A stretch of DNA of 63,575 bases, the filler included, from Deltaproteobacteria bacterium (GTDB taxonomy: Bacteria > JACQOV01): the NCBI GenBank assembly GCA_016202395.1. It is 7 parts of 7 records of this genome, joined end to end, with 100 filler letters (N's around TTAATTAATTAA, not from the genome) between each part and the next. Parts side by side here need not be neighbours in the genome. Positions count along the whole stretch, not along the records: positions 44,546 to 51,681 come from JACQOV010000005.1; 6 more parts are not named here. One strand, given 5' to 3'. A program made the position numbers and the translations under genes. Below the pieces are notes generated by a model. That model made no database searches. It was not told the origin of the DNA and saw nothing but the letters and a program-made list of their open reading frames with translations. Of the stretch, positions 4,123 through 56,822 are shown piece by piece (within the stretch, counting starts at the first letter, position 1; the number at the start of each line of letters is the position of its first letter).

Positions 4123-5427
4123 TTAAAATCGAATCGTTGCGCTAAATCCTGCCACCCAAAAACTCCCCTCCGTGTCTGTGGTTGTTCCATCGTCTTTCGT
4201 CACTTTACGATCTTCAAGCAAATGATACTGCAAAGAGAGATCGGCTGAAAATGGGGGATCCAATTCGCTCTTGAAAAATTTTCCAATCACTAATCCCGCC
4301 CCAGCTGTGATCACATGTTGATCGTTATCTAGAAGGTTGGTTTCCCCTGTTTGTGGGGGGACAGGGGATTCTTCAAACCAGTATCCCGCTCTTGCAATAA
4401 AATGATCCTTCTCATCGGGGAAGAAGGTGTATTCGAGGCCCGCTCGTGGGACATAGGTGTCTTTGAATTTTATCTCCGGAGCGATGATGTCGAGATCGAG
4501 ACCGAGGTCGTCGATGATCCCACCAAAAGGGATTGTCACATAAGGAGAGGGGATGCTCGACCAGTTTTTCCATGTGATGTCGGTTGCGAACAAAAGACTT
4601 TTGCCAAAAAGATAAGAAGCGCCTAGGGCCGCTTGCTCCGGGTCGACGGAGAGATCTTGGTTAATGACAAACGGAATCGATATGCCCGAGAGCACAATAG
4701 AAGTAGAAAGTCGATTCTCGATGTCATTCTGAGTTCTGTAAACCGCCCCAATGCGTAACCTTTTCAGGGAAGGGGACCACTGGCCCGGCTCTAAAAAGAT
4801 TCCTCCGAGTGGGGAGATTGCTAAGAGACCCGCAAGATCGGATGAAACGGTGCCCGCTCCCGAAGCGTCTGATCCCAAATCAAAAGACATCCGATTCATG
4901 TGCAGCAGCCCCGACGCCCCTCCCCCAATGGAGAGTCCCTTGAGCAGCCGAATCCCTAAGATTACATTGGCTGCCATTCGTTGGGCATCTTCGTAGCGAA
5001 AATAGAACGGTTGTGCAGTGCGAGGAGTGACGTGTTCTTGCAAAAGTTTTGGCATCCCTAGATGGACACCTAACCCAAAATAGATGCGATTGGTTAGGAA
5101 CCCTCCAAAGGGGACCTTAATGCCAATTCCAAGATCTGCCCCTTGCCACTCCCGAATGGATTGTTCGCTCCCATTAAAGTCGATGGCGAACTGTCCGTAG
5201 ACTCCTCCAACAACAGCGCTTGCTTTATCCACTTGGGTAATCCCCGCGGGGTTGTAGAAGACAGCAGAGCCATCATCGGCCACACCCGTGAAAGCGCTTC
5301 CCATTCCAGAAGCTCGCGCTCCAAGGCCAAAATTGTCCCAAGATCCCGAGGCATGGGTGGGGTGCGGAATCAAGGCCGAGCCCGCACACAGGAGGAGACC
5401 CAAAGTTAATTTCAGAAGCTTCCGCAT
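4123..5427 (-). CDS. OmpP1/FadL/TodX-family outer membrane transporter (start revised to MRKLLK)
   Basis: GLGARASGMGSAFTGVADDGSAVFYNPAG motif, C-terminal ATIRF; ATG 5427 gives a clean signal peptide and lies downstream of a sigma54 promoter. Confidence 0.9.
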   Translation of the reverse strand: MRKLLKLTLGLLLCAGSALIPHPTHASGSWDNFGLGARASGMGSAFTGVADDGSAVFYNPAGITQVDKASAVVGGVYGQFAIDFNGSEQSIREWQGADLGIGIKVPFGGFLTNRIYFGLGVHLGMPKLLQEHVTPRTAQPFYFRYEDAQRMAANVILGIRLLKGLSIGGGASGLLHMNRMSFDLGSDASGAGTVSSDLAGLLAISPLGGIFLEPGQWSPSLKRLRIGAVYRTQNDIENRLSTSIVLSGISIPFVINQDLSVDPEQAALGASYLFGKSLLFATDITWKNWSSIPSPYVTIPFGGIIDDLGLDLDIIAPEIKFKDTYVPRAGLEYTFFPDEKDHFIARAGYWFEESPVPPQTGETNLLDNDQHVITAGAGLVIGKFFKSELDPPFSADLSLQYHLLEDRKVTKDDGTTTDTEGSFWVAGFSATIRF

Positions 5428-16529: not shown

Positions 16530-16890
16530 AGGGCACCTCTAAAAAACTATCTTCTACTGCAAAATCATGCTCTGGCCTACGACTACGTCGGATTTCACAA
16601 AAAGTCCTCAACGTACCTTCCAGGTACGTTTCCGGGCTTTTTGCTCATCCTCCTTGTCTCNNNNNNNNNNNNNNNNNNNNNNNNNNNNNNNNNNNNNNNN
16701 NNNNTTAATTAATTAANNNNNNNNNNNNNNNNNNNNNNNNNNNNNNNNNNNNNNNNNNNNGAGACAAGGAGGATGAGCAAAAAGCCCGGAAACGTACCTG
16801 GAAGGTACGTTGAGGACTTTTTGTGAAATCCGACGTAGTCGTAGGCCAGAGCATGATTTTGCAGTAGAAGATAGTTTTTAGAGGTGCCCT
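16530..16890. repeat. MITE-like element ends (GGGCACCTCTAAAAA termini) on both sides of a contig spacer
   Basis: 16531-16660 and 16761-16889 are near-exact reverse complements; same terminus at 51202, 51332 and 51828. Confidence 0.85.
16661..16760. other. Artificial contig spacer (also 22606-22705, 26008-26107, 44446-44545, 51682-51781, 56723-56822)
   Basis: Identical 100-nt N-run containing TTAATTAATTAA (stops in all six frames). Confidence 0.97.
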
Positions 16891-22605: not shown

Positions 22606-22778
22606 NNNNNNNNNNNNNNNNNNNNNNNNNNNNNNNNNNNNNNNNNNNNTTAATTAATTAANNNNNNNNNNNNNNNNNNNNNNNNNNNNNNNNNNNNNNN
22701 NNNNNATTTTGTAAAGTGACGATTTTTTTCACTCTGGATCTCCACTCTGTTGAGAGATATTCTTAAAAAATCAATAAA

Positions 22779-26007: not shown

Positions 26008-26107
26008 NNNNNNNNNNNNNNNNNNNNNNNNNNNNNNNNNNNNNNNNNNNNTTAATTAATTAANNNNNNNNNNNNNNNNNNNNNNNNNNNNNNNNNNNNN
26101 NNNNNNN

Positions 26108-42623: not shown

Positions 42624-42675
42624 CCCCTCACCCTCCCCTCTCCCCGCAATGCGGGGAGAGGGTTAGGGTGAGGGG
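42624..42675. repeat. REP-like palindrome overlapping gmk 3' end
   Basis: CCCCTCACCCT..CTCTCCCCGCA-A-TGCGGGGAGAG..AGGGTGAGGGG. Confidence 0.88.
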
Positions 42676-43257
42676 TGGTTTCACCCTTTCTTTACGATTC
42701 CGCTCCGCAACGATAATGGCTTTAAGTTTAACCAACGCCTCCTCAAACACATCGTTCACCACAAAGTAGTCGTATTTCTCGCTCTGGCGGATCTCCTCTT
42801 GAGCTTTCTTGAGGCGTTCTTCAAGTTCTTGAGAGGTATTTTTCCCTCGATGCTCCAGACGCAACCGAAGATGATCCAGGGAAGGAGGGAAAATAAAGAC
42901 CAACACGGAATTGGGATACATCGATTTGAGAGCCAGAGCTCCCTGCGTGTCGATCTCGAAAAGAAGGTCGTTGCCATGCTCTACCTGATCTTCAATAAAT
43001 TTTCGAGAGGTGCCGTAACGTTGTCCATAGACCCTAGCCCATTCTGCAAACTCTTTCTTCTGGATCTTCTTTTCAAATTGCTCCTGTGTCAAAAAGAAAT
43101 AGTCTTTCCCTTCCTGTTCCCCTTCTCTTTTGGGACGCGTCGTTGAAGAGATAGAAAGGATCAGATCAGGGAATGCCCGAAGGAGTTCACTACAGAGAGA
43201 GGTTTTTCCAGTCCCCGAGGGGGCCGAAACAATAAAAAGGATCCCTTTGCGAATCAT
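42628..43257 (-). CDS. gmk: Guanylate kinase (start revised)
   Basis: SAPSGTGKT, TTRPKREGE..G.DYFF, YGTS. Confidence 0.96.
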   Translation of the reverse strand: MIRKGILFIVSAPSGTGKTSLCSELLRAFPDLILSISSTTRPKREGEQEGKDYFFLTQEQFEKKIQKKEFAEWARVYGQRYGTSRKFIEDQVEHGNDLLFEIDTQGALALKSMYPNSVLVFIFPPSLDHLRLRLEHRGKNTSQELEERLKKAQEEIRQSEKYDYFVVNDVFEEALVKLKAIIVAERNRKERVKPPLTLTLSPHCGERGG

Positions 43258-44434: not shown

Positions 44435-44545
44435 ACCAGCGATTANNNNNNNNNNNNNNNNNNNNNNNNNNNNNNNNNNNNNNNNNNNNTTAATTAATTA
44501 ANNNNNNNNNNNNNNNNNNNNNNNNNNNNNNNNNNNNNNNNNNNN

Positions 44546-44647
44546 GAATATAACTTCCATCGACCCCATCAGGCCCTGGGATATCAAACCCCCATCGCCT
44601 TCCATTACCAACATCATCAAGTGTTACCGATGTACCCGTCCAGTACA
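44546..44647 (-). mobile_element. Probable IS end (IS481-like TGT terminus) at contig edge
   Basis: Reverse complement of 63457 onward with one mismatch; begins TGTACTGGACGGGTACATCGGTAACA; flanks differ. Confidence 0.65.
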
Positions 44648-44690
44648 TCTCCTTGCAGATTATTCAATTGGCGGATAAAATAGAAGAAAG

Positions 44691-44945
44691 ATGAGCAAAG
44701 TGGATAAGGTCTTAGAGCGAGTTTTGCGTGGAACTTCAGATGCAAATATTTCCTTTTCGGAAATGTGCCAACTTTTAATTCGGTTGGGTTTTGCAGAGAG
44801 AACCAAGGGGAGCCATCATATTTTTACAAAAGAGGGCATGGAAGAAATCTTGAATCTTCAACCCAAAGGGTCTCAAGCAAAGTCCTATCAGGTAAAGCAA
44901 GTTCGTTCTGTGATTCTGAAATACAAACTAGGGGGTATCGAGTGA
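44691..44945 (+). CDS. hicA: HicA-family toxin
   Basis: LGF..RTKGSHHIF, AKSYQVKQV. Confidence 0.9.
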   Translation: MSKVDKVLERVLRGTSDANISFSEMCQLLIRLGFAERTKGSHHIFTKEGMEEILNLQPKGSQAKSYQVKQVRSVILKYKLGGIE

Positions 44946-45154
44946 TGGTTAAATATGAAGTTATCATTTATTGGAGTCAAGAAGATCAGGCCTTTATTGC
45001 AGAGGTTCCGGAACTGCCCGGCTGTATGGCGGATGGAGAGACTTATGAAGAGGCGTTGGAGAATGTGGAAGTCGTTATCCAAGAGTGGATTGAGACCGCT
45101 GAAGAACTGGGGCGTCCGGTTCCTGAACCCCGAGGCCGTTTAATGTTTGCATGA
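44945..45154 (+). CDS. hicB: HicB-family antitoxin (short form; start revised)
   Basis: YEVIIYWSQED.AFIAEVPELPGCMADGETYEEAL..W..GRPVPEP; TGATG overlap with hicA. Confidence 0.92.
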   Translation: MVKYEVIIYWSQEDQAFIAEVPELPGCMADGETYEEALENVEVVIQEWIETAEELGRPVPEPRGRLMFA

Positions 45155-45170
45155 GGCCTGACCCCATTAT

Positions 45171-46235
45171 TTACTCTCCTTCTATGAGCGTTATTGCTTG
45201 GTCGACTCGCTTTTCAAACTGTTCTCGATAGAACGGGTTGTCAAAATCCATATCGCCAGGTCGACGATAATACGAAACAGGATCCTGTTCAGGAAACATC
45301 CTGTTCGCCACCGCAGTCGCAATCGCTTCTTTCATGGAAACCCCATCGGGCATTCCATTCGCAGGCACTTCATCCAGTAATAACCGAACTTGCTCTGGAT
45401 GGCTCGACTCTAACCCTCGCAATAACAGGTGAACCAGCTCATGACCCAACGCCCCTGTCTCAGAGATACCTTCACGACGAGCATGACGTCCCTCTTGAAA
45501 ATCGAAATCCTTCATATAAACAACCGCAGCGCATTCTTGAGCGCAATGATACTCACTCTTCGGCACGACTTTTGCGATGAACTCCTCTTGAGACTTAAGT
45601 TGCAGTAAAGCAGCTAAAGATCTATCTTCTGACAATAAGAAGAGCCCATCGACCCTCTCTGATTCTATAAGTGACCCCAGCGCTCTCGTCCGAAAGCTTG
45701 GGTTCTCAACAACATCGGTTAAAGAGGCCACGGAATAAGATCCCTGCCAAGTAAAATGGACTTTTGCCTCATTTCCAACAAACTCTTGCAACAGAGCAAC
45801 CGCGCCTTCGACGTAATTCGCATTCTGGTTCAACAGTCGAAGTTCTCTACCATCGGGATCGATGTGGATCAGGGGATTATTCCGGACATAGGCGTAAGGA
45901 GCCTCGGAGAGAACGGGGTCTCGACTGACAAAGCGGACCAGTACAGAGTCATAATACCGGGCGCCGTAATAATAAAGCTCGGTGGCGCGGTCGAGTTCTT
46001 GGCCAGTGTAGAGATAAGGAGTCGCCCCCTCACCTCTTTCCTCTCCCCTTTGGGGAGAGGATGAAAGGTGAGGGGTTAGGATTTCGCCAAACGGGGTGTA
46101 TGTTTCCATCTGGCTAACAGCGCCGCTAGCATCGGTCACTGCGCTCGCCGATCCCAGATGATCGGAATGCGCATACCACACCTCCGCCTGAGCCAGGCTA
46201 CACCACAACGCAAAAATGAAACTCCATCGTATCAT
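45171..46235 (-). CDS. Signal peptide + Rhs core + HExxH metallopeptidase-like C-terminal domain
   Basis: MIRWSFIFALWCSLAQA|EVWYAHSDHLGS, YTGQELD, YYYGARYYD, NNPLIHIDPDG; GHELVH plus downstream E. Confidence 0.85.
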   Translation of the reverse strand: MIRWSFIFALWCSLAQAEVWYAHSDHLGSASAVTDASGAVSQMETYTPFGEILTPHLSSSPQRGEERGEGATPYLYTGQELDRATELYYYGARYYDSVLVRFVSRDPVLSEAPYAYVRNNPLIHIDPDGRELRLLNQNANYVEGAVALLQEFVGNEAKVHFTWQGSYSVASLTDVVENPSFRTRALGSLIESERVDGLFLLSEDRSLAALLQLKSQEEFIAKVVPKSEYHCAQECAAVVYMKDFDFQEGRHARREGISETGALGHELVHLLLRGLESSHPEQVRLLLDEVPANGMPDGVSMKEAIATAVANRMFPEQDPVSYYRRPGDMDFDNPFYREQFEKRVDQAITLIEGE

Positions 46236-46255
46236 TGAATCTGATAACCCCATTC

Positions 46256-47389
46256 TCACGGACACCCCCAAAAGCAAGGATCGTCCGAATTGTTTGGAAG
46301 ATTCGCCTCCCGATCCCAGAATCCCATCTCATCAGAGTCCGCCGGCTTCTCAGAAGAGAAGCGGCTCAGAGCCCCCTCGATAAACGACATCACTTGAGAA
46401 TAAGCGTCTTCATCCCCTTCGATCGCCCGAACAACCACCTTGGAAGCCTCCTCCCCACGTTCCACGAACTGTTGGGGATTGACAAACAGAGAGGCAACTT
46501 CCAGCTCCGGTATCTCACTGGCTTCCGCCACCTTTGAAAACACCTCCGGTAAAAAGAGTGCAATTCCCACACCGATCCCCAGTTTTAACCTTGGATAGAG
46601 CCGCTGGAATCCTGCGCGCTGGAGATCCAATTTCTCCAATTCCTCTAACATCCGAGCCTCATCCTTTAAGGCAACATCAAATTGCCCCTCCAAATGGGCT
46701 AATTCGGCAAGAGCTTTTACGCGACGTTCTCCCAACTTCGAACGCTGCGCCACTGCTAAACGACCACGCTCAACCTCCTTGGGGGTGGTTCCTAACCTTG
46801 CTAACCTCCGAGTGATTCGCGCGATTCGGCCATCTGTTTCCTCGAGCTTCCCCCTATCTCTACCGATCTCCTCACTTAAATCTTGCAATCTCCACCTCGT
46901 CCTCCCCAATCGCTGCAAGGTCTGATTCGTCCGCGCATTCAAGAAGAACAACTCTTTTTCAGGATCTTCAGGAGAGAAACCGTCCGGGTCGACAAAATGA
47001 AGGGGACGATTCCTCGCATAGCCATAGGCTTCTTCTCCAAGAACAGCATCGACACTTTCGAATCGGGCGAGCACGGGATCGTAGTATCGGGCGCCGTAAT
47101 AATAAAGCTCGGCTTCGTGGTCGAGTTCTTGGCCGGTGTAGAGATGGGGAGTCGCCCCCTCACCTCTTTCCTCTCCCCTTTGGGGAGAGGATAAAAGGTG
47201 AGGGGTGACAATCTCACCAAACGGGGTGTATGTTTCTATCTGGATGACAGCGCCACTAGCATCCGTCGCTGCACTCGCCGATCCTAGATGATCGGAGTGG
47301 ACATACTGCAACTCCGCTTGGGCCCAGCAAAAACCTAAAAGCAGAATCAATAGAAAATAGATCTCCTTTTTAAAAAACTTTTTCTTCAT
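46256..47389 (-). CDS. Signal peptide + Rhs core + coiled-coil/hydrophobic C-terminal domain
   Basis: MKKKFFKK..LLGFCWAQA|ELQYVHSDHLGS, YTGQELD, YYYGARYYDP, NRPLHFVDPDG; charged helical region then LGIGVGIALFL. Confidence 0.85.
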   Translation of the reverse strand: MKKKFFKKEIYFLLILLLGFCWAQAELQYVHSDHLGSASAATDASGAVIQIETYTPFGEIVTPHLLSSPQRGEERGEGATPHLYTGQELDHEAELYYYGARYYDPVLARFESVDAVLGEEAYGYARNRPLHFVDPDGFSPEDPEKELFFLNARTNQTLQRLGRTRWRLQDLSEEIGRDRGKLEETDGRIARITRRLARLGTTPKEVERGRLAVAQRSKLGERRVKALAELAHLEGQFDVALKDEARMLEELEKLDLQRAGFQRLYPRLKLGIGVGIALFLPEVFSKVAEASEIPELEVASLFVNPQQFVERGEEASKVVVRAIEGDEDAYSQVMSFIEGALSRFSSEKPADSDEMGFWDREANLPNNSDDPCFWGCP

Positions 47390-47398
47390 AAAAACTTT

Positions 47399-48076
47399 TT
47401 ATCTCCCTCCAATCGGTTTTATCCCTTCCATCATCCACGCTATCGTATTTGTCACTTTAGATATTTTTAATGTTTTAAGTGAGAGCTGTGAAGCAATGCT
47501 TCTTATTCCCTCTTGGGTAAAAGATCTACCCGAAACAAATTTTCTGAAAAATCGCTTTGATAAAGGTATCATAAATCTTGGAAGTCTCCATAATCCGACA
47601 AAAGAATCAATTTCCTCATCCGTACAAGCCTGATCGACTTCAAAAATTAAGAGTACTCCGCCCGGCTTTAATACCCTAAGGCATTCTTTTAAACCTAAAA
47701 GAGGATCTGGCCAGTGTTTAATGGACCCGCTGCTGAAAACTAGGTCAAAAGTTTCATCCTCGATGGCCAGATTCAAAGCAGAGCCTTGTCTGAATTCAAC
47801 TGGAATTCCTAGGGAATCTCTCCGACGAAGCGCCCTTTTGATTTGTTGGGAAGATAAGTCAATCCCAAGAATTGAAAGATCCTTGCGTAAAGTGTGCAGT
47901 TGAATCGCAAGCTGGCCTCCTCCGCAACCTACATCGAGCAGAGAGGCATTATCTTGAATTCTACCAGTAATTTCTTCTTGTAACGCAAGAGAAAGTTCCA
48001 CAACAGCTGGAGCGATAATCCGATCGTATAGAAAGGATTCCAAAGGTTTATACGAAGCGATGTTTTTAAATATCAT
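47399..48076 (-). CDS. Class I SAM-dependent methyltransferase
   Basis: LLDVGCGGG, GIDLS, TFDLV, RVLKPGG. Confidence 0.9.
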   Translation of the reverse strand: MIFKNIASYKPLESFLYDRIIAPAVVELSLALQEEITGRIQDNASLLDVGCGGGQLAIQLHTLRKDLSILGIDLSSQQIKRALRRRDSLGIPVEFRQGSALNLAIEDETFDLVFSSGSIKHWPDPLLGLKECLRVLKPGGVLLIFEVDQACTDEEIDSFVGLWRLPRFMIPLSKRFFRKFVSGRSFTQEGIRSIASQLSLKTLKISKVTNTIAWMMEGIKPIGGR

Positions 48077-48094
48077 ATGAGTTCCTCCTTGTTT

Positions 48095-50449
48095 TTATCC
48101 GATAGTCCTTCCCAATTTTTCTACCAGATTCATACCCATAATTCGCCGGGTGAATATCCAGGCGACCAGAGGAAAAAGGACATAGCAGGTGATGGCATAG
48201 CTATAATCTTGGGGTCTGATATAGGTGGTAATATTGAAAAAGATGGCGCTTCCCAGCCGGTTTTGCAAAAGCCCCAGGAGAATAGCTAAAGGAATGCTTA
48301 TCAAGGTGCCAAGGGAGCCAATAATCATCACCTCAGCCAACAGAATTCTCCAGACCTTTTTCACTTCGAACCCCATCGACCGAAAAATGATAAAATCACG
48401 TTCGCGTTCGTGAATATTCAAACCTACACTGGTGAAAAGGAAGATCGGCGCGAGTATCATAACCAACAACAACATGCTTCTAATTCCAGCATTAATGCTT
48501 TTAATATGCTGATCAACAATGGCGGTGATATCTTTTTTAAGAGTCACATTGGCCACCCTCTCATTTCGGTAAAGATTCTTTTTTGCCGCCTCCGTATTCT
48601 CGCCGGTGACCACCCAGATCCCGGAGTATTTGCCTTCCTCCCCGAGGATCTTTTGCGCGGTTCCCAAGGGTAGATAGGCATATTTAGAGGCGATGTTTAC
48701 TTCCTCGACGATCCCCACCAGGGTTAAAGGGTAGGCTCCCTGTGTGGTTTCAATAGTAATTTGCTGGCCGATCCGGAGGGAAGGCCATAGGTTTCTGTTG
48801 AGTATTATTTCGAAGGCGCTGGCGCCAGAAAAATCGGCTCCCTCTACCACCGCTTGCTTTCTCATTCGGCTTCCTTCTTGATAGCCAATAACCTGCGCAA
48901 AACTTTTTTTCCCACTCACTTCGATGACTCCAAATCCCTTGAGATACCCTTCATAACTCACGGTAATATCCGGCGGCATTTCTTCCTCAATCCTCATTTG
49001 CGATACCGGTTGAGTAAAATCGACAGCGAGATTCCACGGATCCCGCTCAAAAAAATGGATCATCGTCTGATGAATGGAGCTAGTGAGAATATTGAAGGAA
49101 ACCGTGAGGGCCAGGGCTAGGCCGATCGAAAGGATGGAAAAAAAGGCCAGGTTGGGGCGTCTTAAGAGGCCACGCAAGGCATAAAGGAGAAAATACAACT
49201 TGTCTGATTTTAGATTACGGAATGCGGCCCAGACAGGCAAGGCCTTTACCGTCGGCCCTTTCCCCTTAATCGCCGCCATGGGAGTGGATCGTTGGGTAAT
49301 AAAAAAGGCGAGGAAACAACTCAGTAAGCAGAAAATCACCCCGATGAAAATCCCTTCCATGATGAATCGTAAGGGATAAAGATGGTAAATGGGAACATCC
49401 ACTTGATTTAAGATATTCTTAGTAAAGACATGATTCAATGGAATTGAAAGACATGCCCCTACAAAAGAACCCAGGAGAAGATAAAACAAGACTATGGTTA
49501 AATTGTGCCGCAGGAGGATTCTTCTTCGAATCCCTAAGGCATAGAGCACCCCCGTCTCCGTTTTCTTTTCCTCCATCATCCGGTAGAGATTGATGAAGAT
49601 TAGAATACTAATGACCATCCCCATGATCGAGAGGGCTATCGGAGCGAATTTTCGTCCGTTTTCCACAGAGTAACTCAAGTTTTGGTAGTCCAAAGAATCC
49701 CGGCGGGGAATGAAACTTTCCACTCGGATGCCGGAAAGTCTTTCCTTGACTTTCTCTTCCAGTTCTTCAACCGCATAGTTTTTATCAAAGACAAAGGAAA
49801 GACTGTTATAGAGGGGATACCCGAAGAAATTTCGAATGGGTTCCATAGAGGCAAAGAGTATACCCAGGCTCCCTTTAGCAAGAACAATCAAATTGGGATC
49901 GCCGGTAGGAAAAATGAACTCTGGGCTGAGAACTACTCCCTGCACCTCAACCTTGATTTCCTGTCCCTTAGCGGTGAGATTCAGTCGGTCACCCACTTGA
50001 AAATCGTGAAAAGAATGCATGGTTCTGTCGATGAGAACCGACAACGAACCCGAAGATATATTCTCTTCTGTAAGATTCTTCCCCTGGAGTATTCTCAAGG
50101 TATTGATGGAGGTTCCACGGAATTCGTCATAGACTATAAAAACGGATAAATTTTTTCCGCTCTTTAACTCAACGCTCCCTTTGGAAAAAAGACGTTTTTG
50201 GATAGCCTTGATGCCGGGGATATCCTCGAAGACTGGCAGTTCTTCTTCCGTGGATGGTTGAATAAAGACCTGAAGGTCGGCCAAGTTCAGTTCTTCGCTG
50301 ATTTTTGCGTAAGAATGACGAAATGAATCCAGGCTCATGTAATAGGCGCTGTATCCGCCTACCCAAAATGCAATCGCCAGGACCACCGCCACTCCACGGA
50401 GTTTCATTTGCTTTACATCACGCCAAGTTTTATGAGTGAGTGCCTTCAT
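48095..50449 (-). CDS. FtsX/MacB-family ABC permease, duplicated (start revised)
   Basis: Two TM + periplasmic-domain repeats; E.K.ETGVL.ALG and ERERDF..FRSMG motifs. Confidence 0.85.
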   Translation of the reverse strand: MKALTHKTWRDVKQMKLRGVAVVLAIAFWVGGYSAYYMSLDSFRHSYAKISEELNLADLQVFIQPSTEEELPVFEDIPGIKAIQKRLFSKGSVELKSGKNLSVFIVYDEFRGTSINTLRILQGKNLTEENISSGSLSVLIDRTMHSFHDFQVGDRLNLTAKGQEIKVEVQGVVLSPEFIFPTGDPNLIVLAKGSLGILFASMEPIRNFFGYPLYNSLSFVFDKNYAVEELEEKVKERLSGIRVESFIPRRDSLDYQNLSYSVENGRKFAPIALSIMGMVISILIFINLYRMMEEKKTETGVLYALGIRRRILLRHNLTIVLFYLLLGSFVGACLSIPLNHVFTKNILNQVDVPIYHLYPLRFIMEGIFIGVIFCLLSCFLAFFITQRSTPMAAIKGKGPTVKALPVWAAFRNLKSDKLYFLLYALRGLLRRPNLAFFSILSIGLALALTVSFNILTSSIHQTMIHFFERDPWNLAVDFTQPVSQMRIEEEMPPDITVSYEGYLKGFGVIEVSGKKSFAQVIGYQEGSRMRKQAVVEGADFSGASAFEIILNRNLWPSLRIGQQITIETTQGAYPLTLVGIVEEVNIASKYAYLPLGTAQKILGEEGKYSGIWVVTGENTEAAKKNLYRNERVANVTLKKDITAIVDQHIKSINAGIRSMLLLVMILAPIFLFTSVGLNIHERERDFIIFRSMGFEVKKVWRILLAEVMIIGSLGTLISIPLAILLGLLQNRLGSAIFFNITTYIRPQDYSYAITCYVLFPLVAWIFTRRIMGMNLVEKLGRTIG

Positions 50450-50456
50450 AATAAAA

Positions 50457-51167
50457 TTAAGCGGAGCTCTTGGGGATTTCACAGACTTTTCCCTTGGAGA
50501 GCCGGTAAGTTTTGTCTGCACCCTTGGCCAACGATGGGTTATGAGTAACCAATACAAAGGTGGCGCTCAGCTTCGAGTGGAGAGATCTCATCAGCTCGGC
50601 CATCTTCGTGGCATTTTCTTCATCCAGATTACCAGTGGGTTCATCGGCCAGTATCAAGGCGGGCTCTTTGGCGAGGGCCCGAGCGATAGCCACACGCTGC
50701 TGTTCACCCCCGGAAAGCTGATCGCTGAACTTATGGAGGACGTGCTGGAGCCCCACCAGGTCGAGATATTGCATGGCCCTTTCCTTCCGACCGTTTTGCC
50801 TTCCCCCCATAGCCTCCAACCCTAATTCCACGTTTTCCAAAACAGTCAAGTTAGAGATGAGATTGAAAAATTGGAAGATGAATCCTATTTTTTGGCGCCG
50901 AACTTTGGCCAGATCGGAGGCGCGCGCTTGGGTAAGATTGATTCCGTCCACCCATACCTCCCCTTCATCTGCTTGGTCTAGGGCACCCATCAGATTGAGA
51001 AGCGTTGATTTGCCACAACCGGAAGGACCCACAATGGAAACAAAGTCCCCTTGATTGATTTTCAGACTTGCGTCGATGAGCACGGGTTGCTTTACCTCTC
51101 CGCTGAGGTAAGATTTATGCGCACCCTCTATCCGAACCATGCAATGATTTAAATTATTTGGGATCAT
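50457..51167 (-). CDS. LolD/MacB-type ABC ATP-binding protein
   Basis: [26 protein letters not shown]. Confidence 0.93.
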
Positions 51168-51200
51168 TCATTCTCCTTTTCATGAGTAGTCTTCCTATTT

Positions 51201-51333
51201 AGGGCACCTCTAAAAACCTATAAATTGCCCGTTCGTCCTGAGCCTGTCGAAGGATGAACCGTTATAAATCAACGTATTGCAATTTTCATGGTTCGACAAG
51301 CTCACCATGAACGGAGGTTTTTAGAGGTGCCCT
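51201..51333. mobile_element. Complete MITE-like element carrying an internal REP doublet
   Basis: AGGGCACCTCTAAAAACCT / AGGTTTTTAGAGGTGCCCT termini; interior CCGTTCGTCCTGAGCCTGTCGAAGG .. GGTTCGACAAGCTCACCATGAACGG. Confidence 0.8.
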
Positions 51334-51375
51334 TAAGATAGTTAGGTCTGACCCCTACTCGAAGCCTGACCCCGT

Positions 51376-51681
51376 TTACTTTACTTCAAGGAACGAAAAA
51401 TGCTTCTCTAAGCCCTGTTCTTGAGCCAACTTGCGAAGGCGGGCAAAGCACTCCTCTCCGTTACAACTCTCTCGAATCTTTTCAAGCTCAAGAGGAAAAC
51501 CTAAACCGATATCTGATCGAAGACCTTGAGGGTCTGAACCACAACCTGTAATGCCACATTCCCCATTACAACCAACGGGACCACAATCGTTCTCTATCGT
51601 TAACATAAATAGGAAAGCGCTTACCAATCCCGTGAACACCGTAAAACGCGAAACCGATCTTTCCACTTCAGAATCTTCCGC
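51376..51681 (-). CDS. C-terminal fragment of a Cys-rich hypothetical protein (frame open to contig end)
   Basis: Hydrophobic segment then CGPVGCNGECGITGC and CNGEEC. Confidence 0.55.
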   Translation of the reverse strand, partial: AEDSEVERSVSRFTVFTGLVSAFLFMLTIENDCGPVGCNGECGITGCGSDPQGLRSDIGLGFPLELEKIRESCNGEECFARLRKLAQEQGLEKHFSFLEVK

Positions 51682-51781
51682 NNNNNNNNNNNNNNNNNNN
51701 NNNNNNNNNNNNNNNNNNNNNNNNNTTAATTAATTAANNNNNNNNNNNNNNNNNNNNNNNNNNNNNNNNNNNNNNNNNNNN

Positions 51782-56720: not shown

Positions 56721-56822
56721 AGNNNNNNNNNNNNNNNNNNNNNNNNNNNNNNNNNNNNNNNNNNNNTTAATTAATTAANNNNNNNNNNNNNNNNNNNNNN
56801 NNNNNNNNNNNNNNNNNNNNNN

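Follow-up and report, generated by a model that had tools for sequence, protein, structure and literature searches.

Tandem genes joining predicted Sec signal peptides to Rhs-associated cores and unrelated C-terminal domains in a deltaproteobacterial genome bin

The DNA analysed here (hereafter the window, 63.6 kb in total) comprises seven contigs of one bin, the Deltaproteobacteria bacterium assembly GCA_016202395.1, and one of these contigs (7136 bases, positions 44546-51681) carries both members of a tandem pair of open reading frames (ORFs), ORF1 and ORF2, that encode short proteins of the Rhs type. The safest statement, judged from the sequences, is that the two genes are live members of a distinct family in which a Sec signal peptide is followed by an Rhs core and by interchangeable C-terminal domains. 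We consider it reasonably probable that both genes function and belong to a small family, probably of single origin, whose Rhs proteins lack a shell and are exported through Sec, and we regard the exported-core fusion as a real, selected and new architectural variant of the Rhs polymorphic toxins, with export, self-cleavage, toxicity and docking to a shell as its predicted properties. The part of the open literature that was covered describes full-length Sec-exported YD-shell proteins, Rhs effectors of type VI secretion, Tc subunits and orphan cassettes, and contains no account of a signal peptide fused straight onto an Rhs core.

In the usual view, the Rhs core forms the last turn of the cocoon; it acts as the plug of the shell, within which it also releases the toxin by cleavage. 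A family of exported proteins that keep only the core would imply either an autonomous self-cleaving export module or a cocoon that is loaded and closed in trans, and either outcome, if true, changes the picture of Rhs and Tc cocoon assembly. At ~110 residues, the system would also make a small and tractable aspartyl autoprotease model.

Architecture of the two genes

The two proteins share one layout, with the following parts (positions along the window; the arrow marks the predicted cleavage site):

46256..47389, minus strand: ORF1, 377 aa from an ATG start, with signal peptide, Rhs-associated core (TIGR03696) and 240-aa tail; homologue P0014
47315..47389, minus strand: predicted Sec signal peptide of ORF1, residues 1-25 (...WAQA↓E), with MKKKFFKK start, hydrophobic 9-mer of mean 3.28 and A-x-A
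46979..47314, minus strand: ORF1 core, residues 26-137 (ELQYVHSDHLGS ... PLHFVDPDG), with both dyad aspartates (..SVDA.. and ..VDPDG)
46259..46978, minus strand: ORF1 tail, 240 aa, with charged helical region, hydrophobic segment LGIGVGIALFLPEVFSKVA and conserved C-terminal ~110 aa ending in C-x3-C
45171..46235, minus strand: ORF2, 354 aa from the ATG at 46235, with signal peptide, core (TIGR03696) and 225-aa tail; homologue P0002
46185..46235, minus strand: predicted Sec signal peptide of ORF2, residues 1-17 (...LAQA↓E), from sequence features
45849..46184, minus strand: ORF2 core, residues 18-129, from TIGR03696 and alignment to TcdB2-TccC3
45174..45848, minus strand: tail of ORF2 (225 aa), containing C-x3-C, HELVH (45429-45443) and a later Glu

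Signal peptides, in the window pair as in the relatives described below, were judged from sequence features (charge, hydrophobicity and small residues at -3/-1). The N-termini read MKKKFFKKEIYFLLILLLGFCWAQA↓ELQYVHSDHLGS in ORF1 and MIRWSFIFALWCSLAQA↓EVWYAHSDHLGS in ORF2; both combine a basic start, a hydrophobic stretch and A-x-A, after which three residues lead into Y.HSDHLGS, the motif with which such a core usually opens. These features agree with an earlier note on this DNA, made from the sequence alone, which had described in both ORFs a signal peptide ending AQA↓E and placed three residues before that motif. The gene caller begins ORF2 (its called form is protein P0001) at the ATG at 46235, with the N-terminus MIRWSF..., and the longer string MIRWSFIFAL is common to the relatives P0004, P0005, P0008 and P0009; because the gene call and the N-termini of four relatives agree, ORF2 most likely starts 20 bases after the ORF1 stop, the alternative being an in-frame TTG at 46277 that would give 368 aa (45171..46277).

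Neither protein contains a match to PF05593 or PF25023, and hence neither has a YD cocoon within the same chain. The earlier note had also seen no YD-repeat shell, PAAR or VgrG, and the search bore this out, as none of the 55 window ORFs of at least 150 aa (63.6 kb) matched any of the three; since the window consists of contigs only, the statement that there is no shell holds only for the 7136-base contig and the rest of the window. Downstream of ORF1 lies ORF2, 20 bases on, while downstream of ORF2 lies a convergent hicA/hicB pair, and neither gene is followed by a small same-strand ORF.

A shared core under purifying selection

The core measures 112 residues in both proteins and scores 63.7 bits (ORF1) and 73.1 bits (ORF2) against TIGR03696 (cut-off 32.5), with Pfam giving sub-threshold RHS matches only. 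Identity between the two proteins is 66% (97/146) across the signal-peptide end plus the core, whereas their tails cannot be aligned; at the DNA level, similarity extends from the AQAE codons to DPDG, which sustains the earlier description of a core shared in DNA and of abrupt divergence after DPDG. From AQAE to DPDG (115 codons) the ratio of nonsynonymous to synonymous substitutions (dN/dS) is 0.17 (dN 0.14, dS 0.82), indicating purifying selection since duplication. The earlier note had allowed that the genes might turn out to be decayed fragments; with both ORFs intact and a dN/dS of 0.17, this is very unlikely.

Twenty core positions are invariant in a 24-member family alignment, among them D106 and D126 (P0001 numbering), each present in 24/24 sequences and spaced as the catalytic aspartates are (about 20-23 residues apart). 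These two residues align (HMMER) with the SDPAG and DPDGL aspartates of TcdB2-TccC3, which occupy the dyad positions of TccC3, and the ORF2 core as a whole aligns to the last ~110 residues before the TcdB2-TccC3 cleavage site (E 1.5e-8 to TccC3). The boundary motif P-x4-DPxG takes the form PLHFVDPDG in ORF1 and PLIHIDPDG in ORF2, and the family core keeps nearly every canonical motif (HxDHLGS, YxPFGE, GQExD, ARYYD and P-x4-DPxG). According to PMC8765631, the Rhs barrel ends at the PxxxxDPxGL motif, the cocoon is sealed by the conserved C-terminal region, which winds into it in a spiral, and the autoprotease dyad of RhsA consists of two aspartates 22 residues apart, whose change to Asn abolishes cleavage.

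The exchangeable tails

The contents that had been reported for the tails are present, namely HELVH and a downstream Glu in ORF2, and a charged helical stretch and a hydrophobic segment in ORF1. The ORF1 tail is 57% identical to that of P0014, with the last ~110 residues much better kept, and P0014 is its sole tail homologue among proteins of 207-660 aa. P0002 matches ORF2 at 53% identity over 96% of the query (58% over the tail) and keeps H136, E137, H140, E174, C102 and C106, the Glu standing 34 residues after HELVH. A search of the ORF2 tail against 1.84 billion representatives gave no relative outside its own cluster, and this tail has no entry in the ESM Atlas; neither window tail has a Pfam match, and PDB sequence searches of both (E up to 10) returned chance-level matches only. 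The ORF2 tail fits a zincin-type peptidase that would work outside the cytoplasm, a candidate assignment in which HELVH is kept in two sequences, with no Pfam or PDB match and no fold support beside it. The C-x3-C pair is kept in the homologues of both tails, and kept pairs of this kind are frequent in extracytoplasmic proteins.

Across 24 aligned family members (P0001-P0024 and P0042 set), the tails measure 216-280 residues although they are unrelated in sequence; those of two further members, L080 (~165 residues) and L083 (~182), fall below this range. One or two hydrophobic, often Gly-rich, segments occur in 10/24 tails, and some tail types recur on the scaffold (P0001/P0002, P0003/P0014, P0010/P0011, P0016/P0024 and P0009/P0019). 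The family carries a dozen or more tail types without a Pfam family, and the tails of the window pair are nearly free of relatives in billions of sequences.

Recurrence and origin of the family

The search for relatives yielded 461 proteins at E <=0.001 among 7999 scored candidates, and the best 120 of 202-644 aa were examined. A hydrophobic N-terminus with small residues at -3/-1 and a core motif within 48 residues of the N-terminus was found in 23 of these 120, and 21 of the 23 rank among the top 24 matches; most are labelled 'MAG: Deltaproteobacteria bacterium'. Two further top matches (P0016 and P0020) start MA[RH]AE..., as if the start had been called too far downstream. Cleavage in the relatives is predicted at sites such as AQA↓E, AHA↓E, VYA↓E, ATA↓H or ASA↓E. 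The proteins P0004 and P0016, P0008 and P0022, and P0009, P0015 and P0020 come, set by set, from contigs of equal size, suggesting that the members of each set share a contig and are tandem or clustered copies.

By comparison, 78 loci from species-representative genomes (mostly Bacteroidota) contained 101 cores, 29 of them with <70 residues of open frame upstream. A hydrophobic N-terminus was seen in none of these 29 (the highest 9-mer mean was 1.61, vs a threshold of 1.9), which accords with the earlier remark that orphan rhs-CT modules usually lack export signals. When the ORF2 core was compared with long proteins (621-2000 aa), its top match reached 49% identity and 92 bits, vs 49-66% and 103-192 bits for P0003-P0024 (P0023, a long-Rhs fragment, left out). 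A scan of genome contigs with ORF2 found no close relative; the best matches had 47-48% identity, and the scan was saturated by the generic YYYGARYY pattern.

A maximum-likelihood tree was built from 114 cores: 27 from the family, 27 from other short proteins that lack a signal peptide, and 60 from long or partial proteins, a random draw out of 144. One split unites the 27 family cores and contains no outsider (Shimodaira-Hasegawa-like approximate likelihood ratio test, SH-aLRT, 90), and within it a split of 20 includes the window pair together with L080 and L083 (SH-aLRT 95); the family is therefore likely, on this sequence evidence, to have a single origin. The fusion of signal peptide and core thus recurs, in 23/120 of the best short relatives and as one family in the core tree. 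Together with the intact genes, the dN/dS of 0.17 and the Sec-type N-termini, this recurrence leaves standing none of the computable objections that the earlier note had set against its own proposal.

Two metagenomic loci of the same family

Metagenome contigs were scanned with the pattern A-E-[VIM]-x-Y-x-H-[ST]-D-H-L-G-S, which returned 5 loci. Three of these (L079, L081 and L082) were rejected as family members, since they are long Rhs genes of the ordinary kind in which the peptide occurs by chance. L080 (36.7% G+C) encodes a 300-aa member with the signal peptide ...CLAQA↓E and a TIGR03696 score of 77 bits, and this cartridge (signal peptide, core and tail) begins 20 bases downstream of a gene for a 1313-aa YD-repeat protein. 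The larger protein matches RHS repeats (PF05593, E 1.6e-10), has no core match in NCBIfam and has no PDB match at E 0.001; its YD part ends in ...YLGNRPVAENIIG, which we take to be the segment that normally just precedes the Rhs core, and ~150 more residues follow the last YD segment. Within 4981-9177 of L080, a signal-peptide-like start (MINFSK...) lies upstream in the frame of this shell and is cut off by one in-frame TAA at 5122, so that the shell gene may be broken, misread or internally started.

The tail of the L080 cartridge is Gly/Ala-rich. Downstream, and overlapping the cartridge gene by one base, comes a small membrane-protein ORF (82 aa, two hydrophobic helices), which looks from its sequence like the usual immunity gene. 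L083 (57.1% G+C) encodes a 307-aa member that is 57% identical to L080 over 122 residues and is abutted by a 179-aa ORF; its contig ends 169 bases upstream, inside another gene, and the locus is for this reason uninformative on a shell. The earlier claim that immunity genes are lacking is accordingly true of the window pair, but may not extend to L080 and L083, where small ORFs abut the cartridges downstream.

Comparison with known systems

The window pair shares with canonical Rhs/YD toxins (RhsA and Tse5 from type VI secretion systems; WapA) the same core, the aspartate dyad, P-x4-DPxG and a variable tail, and a Sec signal peptide, predicted for the pair, serves Gram-positive proteins of the WapA type (PMC12704120). 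It differs from the canonical proteins in that the ~100-kDa YD cocoon, PAAR and the VgrG-binding parts are absent, the predicted signal peptide abuts the core and no immunity gene follows in the window. Orphan rhs-CT/immunity cassettes resemble the pair in being short, in starting close to the core and in carrying alternative tails, often in arrays (PMC7043789); unlike these, the window genes have predicted signal peptides, have no parent rhs nearby and lack an immunity gene.

In the TcB-TcC system separate genes encode portions of the cocoon, and one partner can be served by different subunits that bear the cargo (PMC11067744). An adjacent core-less shell gene was not found on the 7136-base contig or in the rest of the window, and was seen beside L080 only. 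TcC supplies about half of the cocoon (~680 residues of repeats) and Tc subunits are not known to have a Sec signal peptide, whereas the window pair would bring the plug only. Bacterial teneurin-like proteins (TLPs) are YD-shell proteins that diderms, Myxococcota and Thermodesulfobacteriota among them, export through Sec; their C-terminal domains are small and polymorphic, and some are membrane-active from the periplasmic side (PMC13018210); they differ from the window pair in having full-length shells with many extra domains.

Proposed mechanism and alternative explanations

We reason that Sec would carry each protein into the periplasm, where signal peptidase I would cut after AQA, and that the two core aspartates would then sever the chain behind DPDG, releasing the tail to act as an effector. 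Each protein would in this way place a swappable C-terminal domain of ~165-280 residues behind an aspartyl autoprotease 'plug' of ~112 residues. The similarity pattern further suggests that the conserved 5' module (signal-peptide end and core) would allow tails to be exchanged by recombination, giving rise to tandem paralogues whose tails are unrelated.

Several observations weigh against this proposal. All solved structures of Rhs, Tc and teneurin proteins show the core built into a cocoon (PMC8765631), and autoproteolysis outside a cocoon is not reported in the literature covered. AlphaFold2, given ORF2 with a 24-sequence alignment, returned a mean predicted local distance difference test (pLDDT) score of 44.8, with 33-50 over most of the core, so that the model gives no sign of confident stand-alone folding. 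The residue after DPxG is F (ORF1) or R (ORF2), where L is usual; the tails of the 23 relatives scanned gave no Pfam match at E 0.01, and no tail matches a known toxin family; no cognate immunity gene was found after either window gene, whereas antibacterial polymorphic toxins normally have one. Other contigs of the same bin encode LptE and outer-membrane proteins resembling FadL, from which we conclude that the host is a diderm, and in a diderm Sec reaches the periplasm only; no route beyond it was found. As regards expression, no RNA run is listed among those that contain the stretch, and the core tree came from a quick search on 106 columns.

A more specific form of the proposal is a two-component Rhs, in which plug-plus-cargo cartridges close a separately encoded and separately exported core-less YD shell, with the tail inside; we entertain it tentatively, and extend the same tentative credence to its corollary that tandem cartridges are alternative cargos for one shell and that the shell of the window pair lies elsewhere in the genome. 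Tails of 216-280 residues in 24 members would suit a cargo limit (Tc cocoons, ~30 kDa; PMC8765631), and the low fold confidence of the core on its own is compatible with this arrangement. L080 speaks for it indirectly, as the cartridge there adjoins a core-less YD-repeat gene whose YD part ends in the presumed pre-core segment and which has a signal-peptide-like start in frame upstream, and both L080 and L083 nest within the family (SH-aLRT 95). However, this is one locus only, and its shell gene, having an in-frame stop, is possibly a pseudogene or without a signal peptide; in the window, a methyltransferase gene stands upstream of ORF1 and 0/55 ORFs match RHS repeats. The loading of cargo in trans through the plug alone is, moreover, without known Rhs precedent, TcC bringing half of the cocoon. 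Because no shell gene is present in 63.6 kb and the one supporting locus has an interrupted shell gene, a shell in trans stays for us a possible but doubtful arrangement. If the core instead worked alone, as a self-removing pro-domain that keeps the tail inactive or soluble after export and then cleaves itself, no shell would be needed; neither the contig nor the rest of the window offers a shell gene, both dyad aspartates lie inside the core, and the family cores are distinct from those of all long Rhs proteins found. We nevertheless think this rather unlikely, since the conservation of canonical motifs exceeds what a bare protease site needs, the fold confidence is low (mean pLDDT 44.8) and L080 shows a different arrangement. 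As between the two, both of which the earlier note had offered, L080, the narrow range of tail sizes, the retention of core motifs and the poor stand-alone fold make us lean towards a shell in trans.

A role other than intoxication, with the exported core bearing envelope or surface domains (adhesion, matrix or signalling), is a candidate because the tails are without known function and an immunity gene is absent from the window pair. The tails of 23 relatives, 0 of which match a toxin family, agree with it, as does Bd0109 of Bdellovibrio, a regulatory protein of the RHS family that is small and periplasmic (PMC3818213). Against this, unrelated tails on a conserved delivery module in tandem arrays are a hallmark of polymorphic toxins (PMC3482391), and the 82-aa ORF of L080 and the 179-aa ORF of L083 resemble partners in effector-immunity pairs; we judge a non-toxin role to be quite unlikely. 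It is very unlikely that the genes are functionless, decayed orphan rhs-CT fragments of a former full-length rhs gene, even if short proteins that begin with the core are common as orphans (29/101 cores in 78 loci): both ORFs are intact with a dN/dS of 0.17, a signal peptide would have had to be gained in each (0/29 orphans have one), each whole protein has a full-length homologue elsewhere, the upstream neighbour is a methyltransferase gene and not rhs, and the cores of long Rhs proteins (621-2000 aa) are not close, reaching no more than 49% identity. The pair is in our opinion better read as functioning, Sec-exported Rhs proteins without a shell of their own.

Genomic context

The contigs of the window are joined by N44-TTAATTAATTAA-N44 linkers, and genes that flank a join are consequently not true neighbours:

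16661-16760: linker
22606-22705: linker
26008-26107: linker
44446-44545: linker
51682-51781: linker
56723-56822: linker

On the contig of the pair, ORF1 is preceded on the same strand (47399-51167, minus) by genes for an ATP-binding cassette (ABC) ATPase, a MacB/FtsX-type permease (820 aa) and a class I methyltransferase, the last being immediately upstream and not an rhs gene. The run from the ATPase through permease and methyltransferase to ORF1 has gaps of 18 and 9 bases, and these three genes and the two cartridges may form one operon. MacB-type pumps expel periplasmic substrates. On the other side, the hicA/hicB toxin-antitoxin pair (44691-45154, plus strand) converges on the end of ORF2; the stops of hicB and ORF2 lie 17 bases apart, and 145 bases remain between hicA and the contig end. 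A scan for promoters and terminators gave counts not above those of shuffled sequences.

The stretch is present in four DNA runs of one groundwater study, with the source sample possibly among them. In these runs the short contigs break at repeats, and two single-contig joints between the cores are weak.

A palindromic repeat in the core loop

Both cores carry, in frame, a palindromic element that resembles repetitive extragenic palindromic (REP) sequences:

46026..46075, minus strand: palindromic repeat in frame in the ORF2 core, coding for ..PHLSSSPQRGEERGEGA.., with a 22-bp hairpin (-43.1 kcal/mol, z -6.6)
47156..47205, minus strand: the same palindromic element in frame in the ORF1 core, with an exact 35-base copy shared with ORF2

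The element sits in a variable loop of both cores, where it codes for ..SSPQRGEERGEGA.., and the repeat stretch, 100% identical between ORF1 and ORF2, could serve as a recombination point between the genes. Read depth over it is ~5- to 40-fold that of its flanks in the four groundwater runs, an excess that marks the element as multi-copy. A related copy lies at 42624-42676, between leuS and gmk.

The antisense frames over the two cores are open (45756-46064, plus strand, 102 codons; 46883-47194, plus strand, 103 codons) and both end within the repeat element (..LSPLGRG); they are probably a by-product of composition and not genes. Among the relatives, other palindrome-like inserts (PKGEREKGEG and PPFNKGGNGG) occupy the same core loop.

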